Assembly: GCA_035717205.1 (NCBI GenBank)
Contig: DASTIW010000006.1
Span: 1,417-65,416 of the forward strand
Source: Propionibacteriaceae bacterium
GTDB lineage: Bacteria > Actinomycetota > Actinomycetes > Propionibacteriales > Propionibacteriaceae
Length of the DNA stretch: 64,000 bases
Direction of reading: 5' to 3'
This document shows, piece after piece, positions 27,165 to 31,495 of this stretch. The position numbers were made by a program, and so were the translations under genes. How positions within the stretch are numbered: position 1 is the first letter of the stretch; each line of letters opens with the position of its first letter. The notes beneath the pieces are model-generated. The model made no database searches and was not told the origin of the DNA. It worked only from the letters and a program-made list of their open reading frames with translations.

Positions 27165-28334
27165 ATGAGCGGGAACTTCGAACTCGACGAGGAGCACAAC
27201 GACTTCCGCGCCGCCGTGGCGGACTTCGCCGCCGAGCGCCTGGCTCCGCATGTGAGTCGCTGGGACGCCGGACACACGCTGCCGCTGGATGCGGTCCGCC
27301 AGATGGGGCAGCTCGGCCTGTTCGGCCTGAACGCGCCGCCTGAGTACGGCGGCGCCGGAGACTTCACCAGTCTCTGCGTCGCCATCGAGGAGATCGGCAA
27401 GGTCGACCAGTCCCTGGGTATCACGTTGGAGGCGGCGGTCGGGCTGGGGATAGCCCCGATCGCCCGCTTCGGCACCCGCGAGCAGAAGGAGCGTCTGCTG
27501 CCGGACCTGATCGCCGGCAGGGCGTTGGCGGGCTTCGGACTGACTGAGCCGGAGGCTGGCTCTGATGCCGGCGCTACCAGGACGACCGCGGTGCTGGAGG
27601 ACGGCGCATGGGTGATCAACGGCTCCAAGCAGTTCATCACCAACTCCGGCACCGCTATCACCTCGGTCGTGACGATCACCGCGCGTACCGGCACCCGGCC
27701 CGACGGCACAGCCGAGATCTCGGCGATCCTCGTTCCGGCGGGAGCACCCGGATTCGGCGTGGGCCCCGCCTACGACAAGCTGGGCTGGCACGCCTCGGAC
27801 ACGCACCCGCTCACCTTCGATCACGTGCGGCTCGGCCCCGACGCCTTGCTGGGTGAGCGCGGTCGGGGCTTTGCGGAGCTGCTCGCCGTCCTCGACTCGG
27901 GCAGGGTTGCGATCGCGGCACTAGCGCTCGGCTGCATCCGCGCCTGTGTGGAGATGTCGACCCGGTACGCGCTGGAGCGCACCAGCTTCGGAGCTCCTAT
28001 CGGCCGCCGGCAGGGCGTCGCGTTCCAGATCGCCGACCTCGACGTGATGGCGCATACTGCCCACCTGCTCGTCTACTCCGCGGCCGCGATGAAGGACCGC
28101 GGGTCTGATCATGCGGCCTTCCGCCGGGCGGCCGCGATCGCGAAGGTCTACGCCACCGAGTCAGCCGTCACCGCGACCCGGATCGCGACTCAGATCTTCG
28201 GCGGGTACGGGTTTATGGAGGAGTATCCGGTGGCCCGGTTCTACCGGGACGCCAAGGTGCTCGAGATCGGCGAGGGCACCTCGGAGGTGCAGCGTCTGCT
28301 GATCGCCCGTGCGCTCGGTCTGCCGGTCGAGTGA
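27165..28334 (+). CDS. Acyl-CoA dehydrogenase
   Basis: [59 protein letters not shown]. Confidence 0.95.
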   Translation: MSGNFELDEEHNDFRAAVADFAAERLAPHVSRWDAGHTLPLDAVRQMGQLGLFGLNAPPEYGGAGDFTSLCVAIEEIGKVDQSLGITLEAAVGLGIAPIARFGTREQKERLLPDLIAGRALAGFGLTEPEAGSDAGATRTTAVLEDGAWVINGSKQFITNSGTAITSVVTITARTGTRPDGTAEISAILVPAGAPGFGVGPAYDKLGWHASDTHPLTFDHVRLGPDALLGERGRGFAELLAVLDSGRVAIAALALGCIRACVEMSTRYALERTSFGAPIGRRQGVAFQIADLDVMAHTAHLLVYSAAAMKDRGSDHAAFRRAAAIAKVYATESAVTATRIATQIFGGYGFMEEYPVARFYRDAKVLEIGEGTSEVQRLLIARALGLPVE

Positions 28335-29914
28335 GCGCTCCATCCGCAGGGCAGGATGTGCCCATGACTGATGCTGCCCCCCAGATGAGCGGCGGTACGG
28401 CGGCGGCCATCCGCGCCGCGCGGCAGCGCACCCTGCAGCCAAGCGAGCGCGCGGCGGCCAAGCTTCGGGCGCAGGGGAAGCTGTTCGCTCGCGAGCGGAT
28501 CGCTGAGCTGTTCGATCCGGACACCTTCGTGGAGGACGGCCAGCTCGCCAACGCGCTGGCCGACGGCCTGCCGGCCGACGCAGTGGTAACCGGTCGGGGT
28601 CTGGTGGATCGACGTCCCGCGCTCGTGGTGGCGAACGACCCCAGTGTAAAAGCCGGCTCCTGGGGTGCCAGGACGGTGGAGAAGATCATCCGCGTGACCG
28701 AGGTGGCGCTCCGCGACGAGCTTCCGATCTTCTGGTTCATCGACTCCGCGGGGGCTCGGATCACCGATCAGGTCGACCTGTTTCCGGGGCGACGGGGCGC
28801 GGGCCGGATCTTCCGCAACCAGGTAGCTCTATCGGGCAAGGTTCCGCAGATCTGCTGCCTTTTCGGGCCCAGCGCCGCGGGCGGTGCGTACATCCCGTCC
28901 TTTTGCGACCTGGTGATCATGGTCGAGGCGAACGCGTCGATGTATCTGGGCTCCCCGCGGATGGCGGAGATGGTGGTCGGGGAGAAGGTGACGCTGGAGG
29001 AGATGGGCGGTGCGCGGATGCATGCCACGGTCTCTGGCTGCGGCGACCAGCTCGCCGCGGACGACTCGGACGCCATCGAGCAGGCGAAACAGTACTTCTC
29101 GTACCTGCCGGGAAGCTGGCGCTGCGCCCCACCGCGGTACGACCCGTCCCCAGCCGCTCGGCCCTTCACCGAGGCCCTCGTGCCGACGGACGAGTCAGCG
29201 GGGTACGACATCACCACGGTGATCGAGGCGGTGGTGGACGGCGGCTCGTTCCTGGAGCTCAAACCGCTGTTCGCGCCCGAGGTGGTGACCGGGCTCGCGC
29301 TGCTGGACGGGCAGCCGATCGGGATCGTGGCGAACCAGCCCGCCGTCAAGGGCGGCGTGTTGTTCGTCGACTCGGCCGACAAGGCGGCGCGCTTCATCTG
29401 GCTGTGCGACGCCTTCAACCTGCCGCTGCTGTACCTGGCGGACGTCCCAGGCTTCATGATCGGCAGTGAGGTGGAGCGGCACGGGATCATCCGACACGGC
29501 GCCAAGATGATCACCGCCGTCGCGGAGGCTACCGTACCCACGGTGTCGCTGATCGTGCGGAAGGCGTACGGCGCCGGTCTCTATGCCATGGCCGGACCCG
29601 GCTTCGGTCCGGATGCCTGTCTGGCCCTGCCGACGGCCAAGATTGCGGTGATGGGACCGGAAGCCGCGGTCAACGCCGTTTTCGCCAACAAGATCGCCGC
29701 AATCGAGGACGCCGACGAGCGGGCGGCCTACGTGCGTGACCGCGAGCGGGAGTATGAGCTCAACATCGACATTCTTCGGTTGGCGAGCGAGCTGATCGTC
29801 GATGGCATCGTCGAACCTGCGCAGGTACGTGGCGAGCTGATCGCCCGGTTTGCGGCCGCCGCGAGCAAGGACCGGCACTTCAGCACCCGTCGACATGGTA
29901 TCCCGCCGGTCTGA
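28331..29914 (+). CDS. Acyl-CoA carboxylase carboxyltransferase (beta) subunit
   Basis: DSAGARI, GPSAAGGAY, EEMGGARMH, ADKAARFI, DVPGFMIG, RKAYGAG, AVMGPEAA. Confidence 0.93.
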   Translation: MSAPSAGQDVPMTDAAPQMSGGTAAAIRAARQRTLQPSERAAAKLRAQGKLFARERIAELFDPDTFVEDGQLANALADGLPADAVVTGRGLVDRRPALVVANDPSVKAGSWGARTVEKIIRVTEVALRDELPIFWFIDSAGARITDQVDLFPGRRGAGRIFRNQVALSGKVPQICCLFGPSAAGGAYIPSFCDLVIMVEANASMYLGSPRMAEMVVGEKVTLEEMGGARMHATVSGCGDQLAADDSDAIEQAKQYFSYLPGSWRCAPPRYDPSPAARPFTEALVPTDESAGYDITTVIEAVVDGGSFLELKPLFAPEVVTGLALLDGQPIGIVANQPAVKGGVLFVDSADKAARFIWLCDAFNLPLLYLADVPGFMIGSEVERHGIIRHGAKMITAVAEATVPTVSLIVRKAYGAGLYAMAGPGFGPDACLALPTAKIAVMGPEAAVNAVFANKIAAIEDADERAAYVRDREREYELNIDILRLASELIVDGIVEPAQVRGELIARFAAAASKDRHFSTRRHGIPPV

Positions 29915-29964
29915 ACCCGACCTCTGGTCAACCCGGCCGACCCGGATGGGTCCAGCGGGGCGTC

Positions 29965-30024
29965 CGCATATCTCCCATCCAGCCGCACACCTCCTACGGT
30001 GTGCGCCGGCGTGGGAAGTATGCG
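29965..30024 (+). repeat. Structured 60-nt repeat, copy 1 (nested hairpin)
   Basis: cgcatatctccca...tgggaagtatgcg outer stem; cgcacacc-tcctac-ggtgtgcg inner stem; 48/60 identical to 31081-31140 without gaps. Confidence 0.85.
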
Positions 30025-30086
30025 GATTCTCCACAGATCGGATTCGGGCTGACCACCCGGGTGCTGTGAGGTGCTTCGGTGGTGCG

Positions 30087-31001
30087 ATGGATGAGGGTTT
30101 CGTCGTACGCCTGTGCCGGGATCTCCACGAGGAGGGGTACGGGGCCGCAGAGGTTGCGAAGCTGGTCGCCTCCGGGCAGCTCAAACGGATCCGCCGGGGA
30201 GGCTACGCCGCGAAGGCTGCCTCGAACGCCGTCGAGCTGCACCGTCAGCTGATTGCCGCGACCGTGCCGATGTGGCGAGCGACGCCTGCGTGAGCCACAT
30301 TTCCGCCGCGGTCGTACACGGCCTGCCGTCGTGGCCCGACTTGTTGTCCCGAGTGCATGTCATTCGGTCCCGGCACGGCGGTGGCCGGCGTGGGACCGTC
30401 GTCCATGTACATCCTGGGCGCCTCGAGGTCGGCGACGTCGTCGCGCTGGAGGACCTCCGGCTGACCAGCATCGCTCGGAGCGTCGCTGACTGTGCTCGTA
30501 CCGTGTCCTACATCCGTGCCGTGGCCATTGGCGACGCGGCGCTCCGCATCGGTCTGAACCGATCAGACCTGGCCGACTGCCTCGGTCGCACGGCCGGCTG
30601 CCGAGGGGCGGGGCAGGCGCGGCGGGTGGCATCCTTCATCGACCGAGGCGGGGAAAGCGTCGGCGAGTCCTTCAGCCGGATCCTGCTGCATAGGGCCGGC
30701 CTGCCGGTCCCTCGACTGCAGTTCGATGTGCGCGACGGCGCCGGGGTCACGGTGGCGCGAGCCGACTTCTGCTGGCAGGAGCAGCGGACGCTCGGCGAGT
30801 TCGACGGCAGGGTGAAGTACGGCCGACTGCTGAAACCGGGTGAGAGCCCTGGAGACGTCGTGTTCCGGGAGAAGGTACGTGAGGACATGGTCCGCGACCT
30901 CGGCTGGGAGGTGGTTCGTTGGACCTGGGACGACCTGGACCGCCCCGCCGTACTCGCTGAACGCCCTTCTCCGCGCATTCGCTCGCGGCCAGCGTCGCTG
31001 A
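30087..31001 (+). pseudogene. AbiEi-type wHTH + DUF559/Vsr-like nuclease-fold protein, frameshifted at about 30272 and about 30964
   Basis: Frame A: MDEG...LVASGQLKRIRRGGYA. Frame B: CVSHISAAVVHGLP, TSIARSVADCAR, ESVGESFSR, GLPVPRLQ, ARADF, GEFDGRVKY, VVRWTW. The expected end (E)RLLRAFARGQRR* appears only after removing one C at about 30964. Confidence 0.8.
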
Positions 31002-31061
31002 GGCCACACGGGCGCTCGGCCGGCTCGGGAGGTTCGCCGCACCCAGGGGACGGATGGCCGG

Positions 31062-31140
31062 CGCACATCTCCGATCCAGCCGCACATCTCCGATCCAGCC
31101 GCACACCTTGCGGGGTGTGCGCGAGCGTGGGGGGTGTGCG
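31062..31140 (+). repeat. Structured 60-nt repeat, copy 2 (31081-31140), preceded by a 19-nt tandem duplication of its 5' end
   Basis: cgcacatctccgatccagc at 31062 and 31081; inner stem cgcacacc-ttgcgg-ggtgtgcg; outer stem cgcaca/tgtgcg. Confidence 0.85.
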
Positions 31141-31178: not shown

Positions 31179-31463
31179 TCAGCCGACGTCGGAGAAGTGC
31201 TCCACCCGGGGCGGGCCGGCGAAGTACGGGCTGATGGCGGCTCGCCAGCTGCGAAACCGGTCGGTCTGGCGGAAGTTCCGCTCATGTGCCACGACGGAGT
31301 CCCATTCGACCAGCAGGACGAACCTGTTGGGCGACTCGATGCCGCGGGTCATCCGGACCGATCTGCACCCGTCGGCGCCGCTCAGGACATCACGTATGCC
31401 GAGATACGCCGACTCGAAGCCGTCGGAGTCGGTGACGTCGAAGAGGGCCACTTCAAGAACCAT
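31179..31463 (-). CDS. Antibiotic biosynthesis monooxygenase (ABM) family protein
   Basis: FESAY..., GCRSVRMTRGIESPNRFVLLVEWDSVVAH, FRQTDRF. Confidence 0.85.
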   Translation of the reverse strand: MVLEVALFDVTDSDGFESAYLGIRDVLSGADGCRSVRMTRGIESPNRFVLLVEWDSVVAHERNFRQTDRFRSWRAAISPYFAGPPRVEHFSDVG

Positions 31464-31495
31464 GAGTTTCCGATCGTAGGGAGATGATGGAGACC

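Follow-up and report, generated by a model that had tools for sequence, protein, structure and literature searches.

A broken AbiEi-type gene between nested palindromes in a Propionibacteriaceae genome: a recurrent actinobacterial unit and a possible HUH-independent parallel to REP/RAYT partnerships

The maintenance and multiplication of short bacterial repeats by an enzyme devoted to them and inherited vertically are, to our knowledge, well described only for the REP/REPIN-RAYT systems (repetitive extragenic palindromic sequences, REPs, and their REP-associated tyrosine transposases, RAYTs), and all cases known to us rely on an HUH transposase and come mainly from Proteobacteria. The subject of the present analysis is a 64,000-nt stretch of DNA from a Propionibacteriaceae bacterium (contig DASTIW010000006.1 of assembly GCA_035717205.1; the whole stretch is referred to as the window), in which a broken gene for a protein with an AbiEi-type winged helix-turn-helix (wHTH) and a Vsr-like, nuclease-like C-terminal domain lies between two copies of a 60-nt nested palindrome, termed family A. 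The gene family to which it belongs is associated with lineage-specific palindromes, and sequence comparison delineates a recurrent actinobacterial one-gene unit composed, in order, of a nested palindrome, a DnaA-box-like motif, the AbiEi-wHTH/Vsr-like nuclease gene, and a second nested palindrome. No published description of palindromes paired with AbiEi-type nuclease genes was found in the literature searched.

The features held in common with the REP/REPIN-RAYT systems of Proteobacteria are a single-copy enzyme gene flanked by a short palindromic repeat that is also scattered intergenically, a separate repeat family for each gene lineage, multiplication of the repeats and not of the gene, the lack of target-site duplications, and a preference of solo copies for positions behind gene ends. 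The enzyme there is an HUH/Y1 transposase, whereas the present one joins an AbiEi winged helix to a Vsr-like PD-(D/E)xK domain; the repeat here is a nested structure of 60–90 nt with four boxes in contrast to a 20–40-nt REP with a GTAG/CGTC head; copy numbers run to tens here and to hundreds there; and the present unit includes a DnaA-box-like motif. In REPtrons the flanking REPs are inverted, whereas the window copies are direct and those at other loci direct or inverted, and the mobilisation of the palindromes is in the present case something that we infer. IS200/IS605 elements employ an HUH TnpA, unlike the host genome, which has no Y1_Tnp, and family-A copies have no conserved target sequence. 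A RAYT or IS200 enzyme was rejected because the genome lacks a Y1/HUH gene: Y1_Tnp (PF01797) gave no match in the whole genome and matched in six of 14 control genomes. A miniature inverted-repeat element derived from a DDE transposon would be expected to leave a target-site duplication, yet none was detected at the 11 family-A copies inspected, where no direct repeat rose above chance (2–4 nt).

The window unit, of about 1.26 kb, sits in a 1,264-nt intergenic gap between an acyl-CoA carboxyltransferase gene and an ABM (antibiotic biosynthesis monooxygenase-like) gene, and its parts follow one another on the + strand as the upstream palindrome (copy 1, 29965–30024, one of 16 in the genome), the DnaA-box-like motif (30027–30039), the 915-nt gene (30087–31001), an extra 19-nt arm unit (31061–31079), and the downstream palindrome (copy 2, 31081–31140). 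Copy 1 consists of the box CGCATAT, a 12-nt linker, the box CGCACACC, a 6-nt loop, the box GGTGTGCG, a second 12-nt linker, and the box GTATGCG. An earlier note on this DNA had described the two copies as aligning without gaps at 48 of 60 positions; the alignment was reproduced, and the best 60-mer match between mononucleotide-shuffled flanks averaged 30 and never exceeded 33. The inner 8-bp stem CGCACACC/GGTGTGCG is likewise unchanged between copies while the loops (TCCTAC vs TTGCGG) differ at five of six positions, and a 19-nt unit of one box and its linker, duplicated in tandem from the 5′ arm in copy 2, is present with 18 of 19 positions identical (31061–31079 vs 31080–31098). The assertion that both copies fold holds strongly for copy 1 (z = -4.9 on the + strand and -6.7 on the - strand against shuffled sequences, folded as DNA) but weakly for copy 2 (z = -1.95 and -1.6). 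Both copies score best on the + strand (for copy 2, nhmmer gives 59.0 on the + strand vs 46.9 on the - strand) and are thus in direct orientation.

The same layout was sought at 40 homologous loci in genomes of the same genus or order, and at 80 more from the GTDB species set, by comparing the upstream region (approximately -90 to -200) with the region just 3′ of the stop codon. A shared flank repeat of 45–130 nt was observed in approximately 30 of the 40 loci of the first set and in 56 of 77 loci of the second, the latter including Microlunatus ginsengisoli, Pseudonocardia alaniniphila, P. acaciae, Prescottella agglutinans, P. subtropica, and a Nocardioides metagenome-assembled genome. In a control with a match threshold of at least 40 bits, the two flanks of a locus matched each other in 70 of 121 loci (58%) as against 0.74% of cross-locus pairs, most of these matching cross-locus pairs being orthologues or one locus fetched twice, so that the link between repeat and gene family suspected in the earlier note is upheld. 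In the 44 loci whose anatomy was resolved, each palindrome arm has its box twice with a period of roughly 19 nt, the box sequences being unrelated between families, and complete palindromes are found on both sides of the gene. The architecture common to them is a 7–12-nt box present twice per arm, with the arms inverted around a 4–10-nt loop and a total length of 60–90 nt across families; examples of boxes from different families are CCCCCCACTT, TCTGCATGG, ATCCACACCC, GCACCCT, and CGACGAGGCACC. The second palindrome lies directly 3′ of the stop codon in most loci, and the orientation of the flanking copies varies, being direct in some loci and inverted in others. It is this comparison between families that provides strong evidence for a constrained palindrome, in the form of the covariation that the earlier note had proposed to test. 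Protein relatedness also tracks the repeat that a locus carries, given that flank repeats are shared by 100% of locus pairs at 80% protein identity or above, by 37% at 60–70%, and by 0.1% at 40–50%.

Other genomes, too, hold solo palindromes. Genome G001 has 15 full-length copies of the palindrome that frames its gene (locus L039, box CCCCCCACTT), which are 85–100% identical and of which 13 are solo; genome G014 has five copies of its own palindrome, three of them solo, and the G001 family occupies at least eight sites in genome G002. Nine of 12 G001 solo copies start 7–36 nt behind the end of an open reading frame (ORF) with coding-type GC3 (GC content at third codon positions). The gene copies within the host genome of the window are, by comparison, 37–55% identical to one another, none being near-identical to another. 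Palindromes that multiply beside gene copies that are old and divergent amount to the REPIN-RAYT pattern. In the G001 solo copies L161–L172 (positions 797–864), the 3–4 bases immediately outside the 60-nt palindrome are often mutually complementary and copy-specific (ctcg/cgag, ccga/tcgg, and ctca/tgag), the stem thereby extending into copy-specific sequence, and this extension might carry information on the insertion mechanism.

In the host genome, tblastn retrieved three intact paralogues, C34, C45, and C35. The window gene (C6) has family A on both sides; the C45 paralogue lies between copies of family B, which follows the 19-nt design with the box CGCGCGAC and numbers 13 copies in the genome; the C34 paralogue has its own palindrome array downstream; and the C35 paralogue is followed by family D, also with 13 genome copies. 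It had been asked in the earlier note whether copies of the 60-mer track paralogues of the gene: the 60-mer itself does not, there being no intact paralogue near any family-A copy, but each paralogue has a palindrome family of its own. A first reading of family A as a generic REP without any link to a gene, prompted by dispersed copies none of which lay near paralogues, was dropped in view of these separate families and of the family-wide layout. Family D is an intergenic repeat of about 90 nt with two hairpins (gatgttggcactcccc...ggggagtgccaacatc, followed by cccacgtgaacgtggg), found among other places at C35:35384–35476, C11:65962–66087, and C11:85671–85820; one copy lies directly 3′ of the C35 gene, which is the most divergent paralogue, and several lie within 1–2 kb of family-A copies. 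Two adjoining nested palindromes with the box CGTCCCA at a spacing of about 17–19 nt occur at C45:29663–29800, with no cognate gene found nearby.

The core CGCACACC-N6-GGTGTGCG occurs 11 times in the 3.47-Mb genome, and a profile search recovered 16 family-A copies, all intergenic and in a single ungapped 66-nt register; 14 of these are solo copies outside the window unit, and the repeat is thus found well beyond its locus. Each copy contains the heptamer CGCACAC four times (two direct and two inverted) at 19 nt from box start to box start, with majority-base frequencies of 0.88–0.98 in the boxes against 0.60–0.69 in the linkers and loop. The ends had been regarded as selected for structure. 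What is conserved is four sequence boxes, a pattern that speaks for recognition of specific sequence by a protein no less than for ends selected by structure. The wobble-pair strand test, counted on the sense strand, gave 193 G-T against 141 A-C pairs, a weak bias accompanied by many C-C and G-G mismatches. Covariation, which is strong between families, is weak within family A, where 80.1% of cells pair compared with 77.3% in shuffles and five of 500 shuffles reach the observed value. The compensatory outer-stem change (T-A for C-G) does exist between the window copies but is a single event among the 16, in which the pair is CG in eight, UG in two, UA in one, and unpaired in five. Arm units are expanded in tandem to six at C20, to four at C10, and to two in copy 2 of the window unit, and these expansions look like slippage between direct boxes.

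Some family-A copies, among them window copy 2 and C45:21935, are located where the ends of two genes converge, and doublets without a gene exist at C45:167930/168059 and C9:14840/15230. No conserved tetranucleotide or pentanucleotide was found beside the copies. A known RNA family or intrinsic terminator was rejected, since the palindrome has no Rfam match above the gathering score and no terminator-like site of hairpin plus T-tract. Beyond the host, the exact core was absent from 36 same-genus genomes and occurred once in 24 same-order genomes, while the four-box pattern gave three matches in the JGI metagenome collection; no family gene was found at these three by comparison with the window gene, nor beside the palindrome in the fully read L159. 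At C20:62040–62990, two family-A palindromes 727 nt apart, the left one with the six tandem 19-nt arm units, bracket an ORF that encodes only the C-terminal half of a domain of MDMPI_N type (mycothiol maleylpyruvate isomerase-like), whose N-terminal half lies in another frame; the two genes that family-A pairs enclose in this genome, namely the window gene and the C20 MDMPI_N gene, therefore both appear frameshifted. Between two degenerate copies 390 nt apart at C9:14808–15260 lies a hairpin repeat of a third kind (ccgctgatattcccgcccgacc...ggtcgggagggaatatcagcgg), which is also present twice at C40:31644–31912.

The window gene (30087–31001, + strand), annotated from its translations and a sub-threshold Pfam AbiEi_4 match (23.4 bits against a cut-off of 25), shows the wHTH, the SHxSAA..HGL motif, and the nuclease-like C-terminus (ADF..GEFDG) previously ascribed to it. 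It is a pseudogene with frameshifts near 30268–30270 and in a C-run at 30964–30966, the first 63 and last 12 codons lying in one frame and the middle 230 in another. The 141-nt overlap between contig ends suggests that short reads were assembled by k-mers, which seldom introduces indel errors, and the two frameshifts are thus probably real. PADLOC assigns residues 10–185 of an intact paralogue to AbiEi (E = 5e-17), and there was no NCBIfam match to the protein. An AlphaFold2 model of an intact paralogue built with 50 homologues (pLDDT 91.6) was compared by Foldseek: the N-terminal two-thirds (about 185 residues) matched Rv2827c of M. tuberculosis (1zel) and the S. agalactiae AbiEi (6y8q) at E = 1e-5, and the last 110 or so residues matched I-Bth0305I, a Vsr-like homing endonuclease, over its catalytic domain (3r3p_B) with a TM score of 0.77 and a root-mean-square deviation of 3.3 Å. 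Residues D226, E237, D239, K262, E265, and D266 are invariant among the 50 homologues. Pfam DUF559 (PF04480) and Vsr (PF03852) gave no match at E <= 1 for the three intact paralogues and at E <= 0.01 for the window fragment, and a sequence search of the PDB returned nothing. Vsr, DUF559, and 3r3p form one PD-(D/E)xK clade (Steczkiewicz et al. 2012, PMC3424549), and the C-terminal domain is predicted to adopt a restriction-endonuclease-like, Vsr-like fold.

The protein thus shares with the AbiE type IV toxin-antitoxin systems the AbiEi fold of its N-terminal 185 or so residues, but differs from them in its extra C-terminal nuclease-like domain, in the palindromes placed on both sides of the gene and dispersed in the genome, and in lacking a partner gene: no AbiEii (DUF1814 nucleotidyltransferase) gene adjoins the window gene, and no further ORF of the gene family is present in the 1.26-kb gap. 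With the Vsr/DUF559 clade, I-Bth0305I included, it shares the predicted C-terminal fold and the conserved acidic and lysine residues, the differences being the lack of a significant Pfam match, a gene located outside any intron or intein, and a nuclease activity that is predicted. The family is diverse, occurs in several copies per genome, and is very large, with 2,238 matches among 8,000 scored candidates. Many metagenome contigs with family members are 1.0–2.5 kb long, approximately the size of the unit, which fits assembly breaks at the flanking multi-copy palindromes.

The sequence TTCTCCACA at 30027–30035, adjoining copy 1, had been set down in the earlier note as a DnaA-box match that could be chance. 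This caution proved unnecessary: its core TCCACAG begins 57 nt 5′ of the start codon and recurs at about -57 to -60 in 65 of 77 loci and in most of the 44 loci, the aligned consensus being GTT(G/A)TCCACAGAT independently of the palindrome family, with TTCTCCACAGATC (30027–30039, + strand) as the local instance. The DnaA box of high-GC Gram-positive bacteria is TTGTCCACA. In the host genome, dnaA is flanked by four TCCACA boxes, AGTTGTCCACAGG, GGTCCACAG, AGTTATCCACATC, and TTACTCCACAC, two of which (AGTTGTCCACAGG and AGTTATCCACATC) have the form AGTT(G/A)TCCACA(G), in modest agreement with the motif being a putative DnaA box. A TCCACAG cluster at C37:52.4 kb was rejected as the origin of replication because it adjoins an integrase; this cluster of TCCACAG/TTGTCCACA boxes (C37:52400–55100), with a tyrosine-integrase-like ORF (MASIERRVIQRRDNSGRLRKVTRYRVRYRD...) beside it, may represent an integrative element that employs DnaA-type boxes in its replication region. 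Iteron-type plasmid origins combine a winged-helix Rep initiator, 17–22-bp iterons, inverted half-iterons as operator, and DnaA boxes. With direct boxes that repeat about every 19 bp, inverted versions of the same box, a DnaA-box-like motif, and an adjacent winged-helix gene, the present units resemble such origins, a likeness that serves as a lead; they differ in being chromosomal and present in many divergent copies, in encoding an AbiEi-like protein with a nuclease domain, and in having solo copies without a gene.

To the left of the unit, and outside it, the acyl-CoA carboxyltransferase gene (28331–29914, + strand; Pfam Carboxyl_trans, E = 5e-150) marks the left edge of the insertion, while the ABM gene (31179–31487, - strand; Pfam ABM, E = 3.6e-7, supported by synteny with relatives) is convergent with the unit and marks its right edge; an exact-protein look-up of the ABM product gave no record. 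The empty site that the earlier note had proposed to look for is present in relatives, in which the carboxyltransferase gene is followed after 45–150 nt by the ABM gene or directly by an SDR gene (short-chain dehydrogenase/reductase), the gap in G001 being 55 nt. Because no family gene was found in the carboxyltransferase–ABM/SDR gap of the relatives, the window unit is taken on this comparison to be an insertion or a lineage-specific retention at the site. The relatives with the empty site, at about 80% protein identity, are too distant for base-level junctions, and the same applies to a young G001 solo copy (L164), whose relatives are at most 81% identical with non-syntenic flanks. The carboxyltransferase–ABM gap ranges from 45 nt to 2 kb among relatives and is a recurrent insertion place; in four same-genus genomes (L029, L031, L033, and L036) it holds 1.8–2.1 kb of other DNA without a family-gene match. 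At L023 (G003, ~300–450), the carboxyltransferase–SDR gap contains a different, long GC-rich hairpin with an RNA fold of about -76 kcal/mol over 150 nt.

The observation of the earlier note, a wHTH/nuclease gene bracketed by related hairpin repeats, is hence confirmed, and its interpretation as a REPtron-like or mobile unit is partly supported, none of the three refuting conditions set out there having held. The window is considered, with about an even chance of being right, to contain a decayed example of a partnership like that of REP and RAYT, in which a non-HUH nuclease is paired with palindromes of its own. AbiEi proteins bind inverted repeats, including those in their own promoters. The winged-helix part would read the boxes; the nuclease domain would nick or cut the bound palindrome as duplex, extruded cruciform, or hairpin; repair or copying would then spread and homogenise the palindrome at intergenic sites, mostly just 3′ of stop codons; and the DnaA-box-like motif would probably make expression, or the opening of DNA nearby, depend on the state of replication. 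With the enzyme gene broken in the window, family A would now be a non-autonomous or fossil population. The bolder form of this proposal, in which such proteins constitute a second, HUH-independent class of repeat-mobilising enzyme, whose AbiEi domain reads the four boxes and whose Vsr-like domain cuts, with repair copying the palindrome, DnaA gating the process, and the partnership persisting with its Actinomycetota hosts, is put forward tentatively and deserves distinctly less confidence. Several points weigh against the partnership. Binding, cutting, and moving of palindromes by the protein are steps that we infer; the Pfam DUF559/Vsr models miss the protein, and the nuclease label rests on the predicted fold and the invariant acidic and lysine residues. 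About 40% of the loci have no shared flank repeat, the wobble-pair bias lends weak support to a single-strand hairpin, and the mutual identity of the window's flanking copies (0.80) is no higher than their identity to some solo copies (0.78–0.82). Family A keeps conserved boxes beside a broken gene, which requires either a recent inactivation or some other constraint. Lastly, coding DNA of the closest genomes reaches no more than about 81% identity, and the exact insertion junction is not definable for this reason.

A view that is not exclusive of the partnership, although unlikely as the principal account, is that the whole cassette of palindrome, gene, and palindrome is mobile, as a selfish element of one gene that moves slowly, is of transposon or homing type, and ends in palindromes, the solo palindromes being footprints or miniature derivatives mobilised in trans. 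The 1.26-kb unit missing from the orthologous site of relatives, the unrelated chromosomal contexts of other units, the likeness of the C-terminal fold to a homing endonuclease, and the family-A pairs around other DNA (at C20 the broken MDMPI_N gene, at C9 a segment of 330 nt) would all suit it, but the gene copies are 37–55% identical as against 85–100% for the G001 palindromes, so that it is the palindrome which has recently multiplied, and neither the missing target-site duplication nor the orientation of flanking copies, which differs between loci, is in its favour. The notion that the protein is an autoregulated AbiEi-like repressor, with the upstream palindrome as its operator, the other copies as operators of a regulon and/or terminators, and nothing mobile, is a good deal less probable again. 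It draws on the binding of AbiEi-type proteins to inverted repeats in their own promoters (the structural match being 6y8q), on boxes conserved as sequence beyond pairing, and on the position of the upstream palindrome just 5′ of the putative promoter and DnaA-box region. It is at odds with the second copy directly 3′ of the stop codon in most loci, with copies between convergent gene ends (window copy 2 and C45:21935), with nine of 12 G001 solo copies lying 7–36 nt behind ORF ends and outside promoters, with families that are species- or lineage-specific and missing from relatives, with the tandem arm expansions, with the conserved nuclease-like domain, and with the persistence of family A beside a dead gene.

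A homing-type gene that targets pre-existing palindromes spread by other means, landing between or next to members of the family that it recognises, would have a precedent in REP-targeting insertion sequences of the IS1397 type, and both the palindrome doublets without a gene (C45:167930/168059 and C9:14840/15230) and the homing-endonuclease-like fold accord with it. This account is nevertheless very improbable, as the host genome has no RAYT and no other candidate enzyme to spread the palindromes, the gene copies are old and single per family, and insertion would split a palindrome, yet both sides are complete. Coincidence, whereby a decaying gene came to share one variable intergenic region with generic REP-like terminator hairpins to which it has no relation, could appeal to the clustering of different repeat families in some regions (such as C10 and C11) and to the variable carboxyltransferase–ABM gap among relatives, but is scarcely credible and effectively refuted by same-locus flank matches of 58% against 0.74% between loci, over 121 loci and several orders.

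Should the partnership of palindrome and nuclease be true, a repeat-plus-enzyme alliance would have evolved at least twice, and a function would be at hand for a very large family whose members at present bear the labels “AbiEi antitoxin domain protein” or “hypothetical”. It would also explain a class of actinobacterial intergenic repeats, together with the 1–2-kb metagenome contigs that carry family genes, and would provide a natural set of protein–DNA specificity pairs with one box type per paralogue, while the conserved DnaA-box-like motif suggests a testable link to replication.

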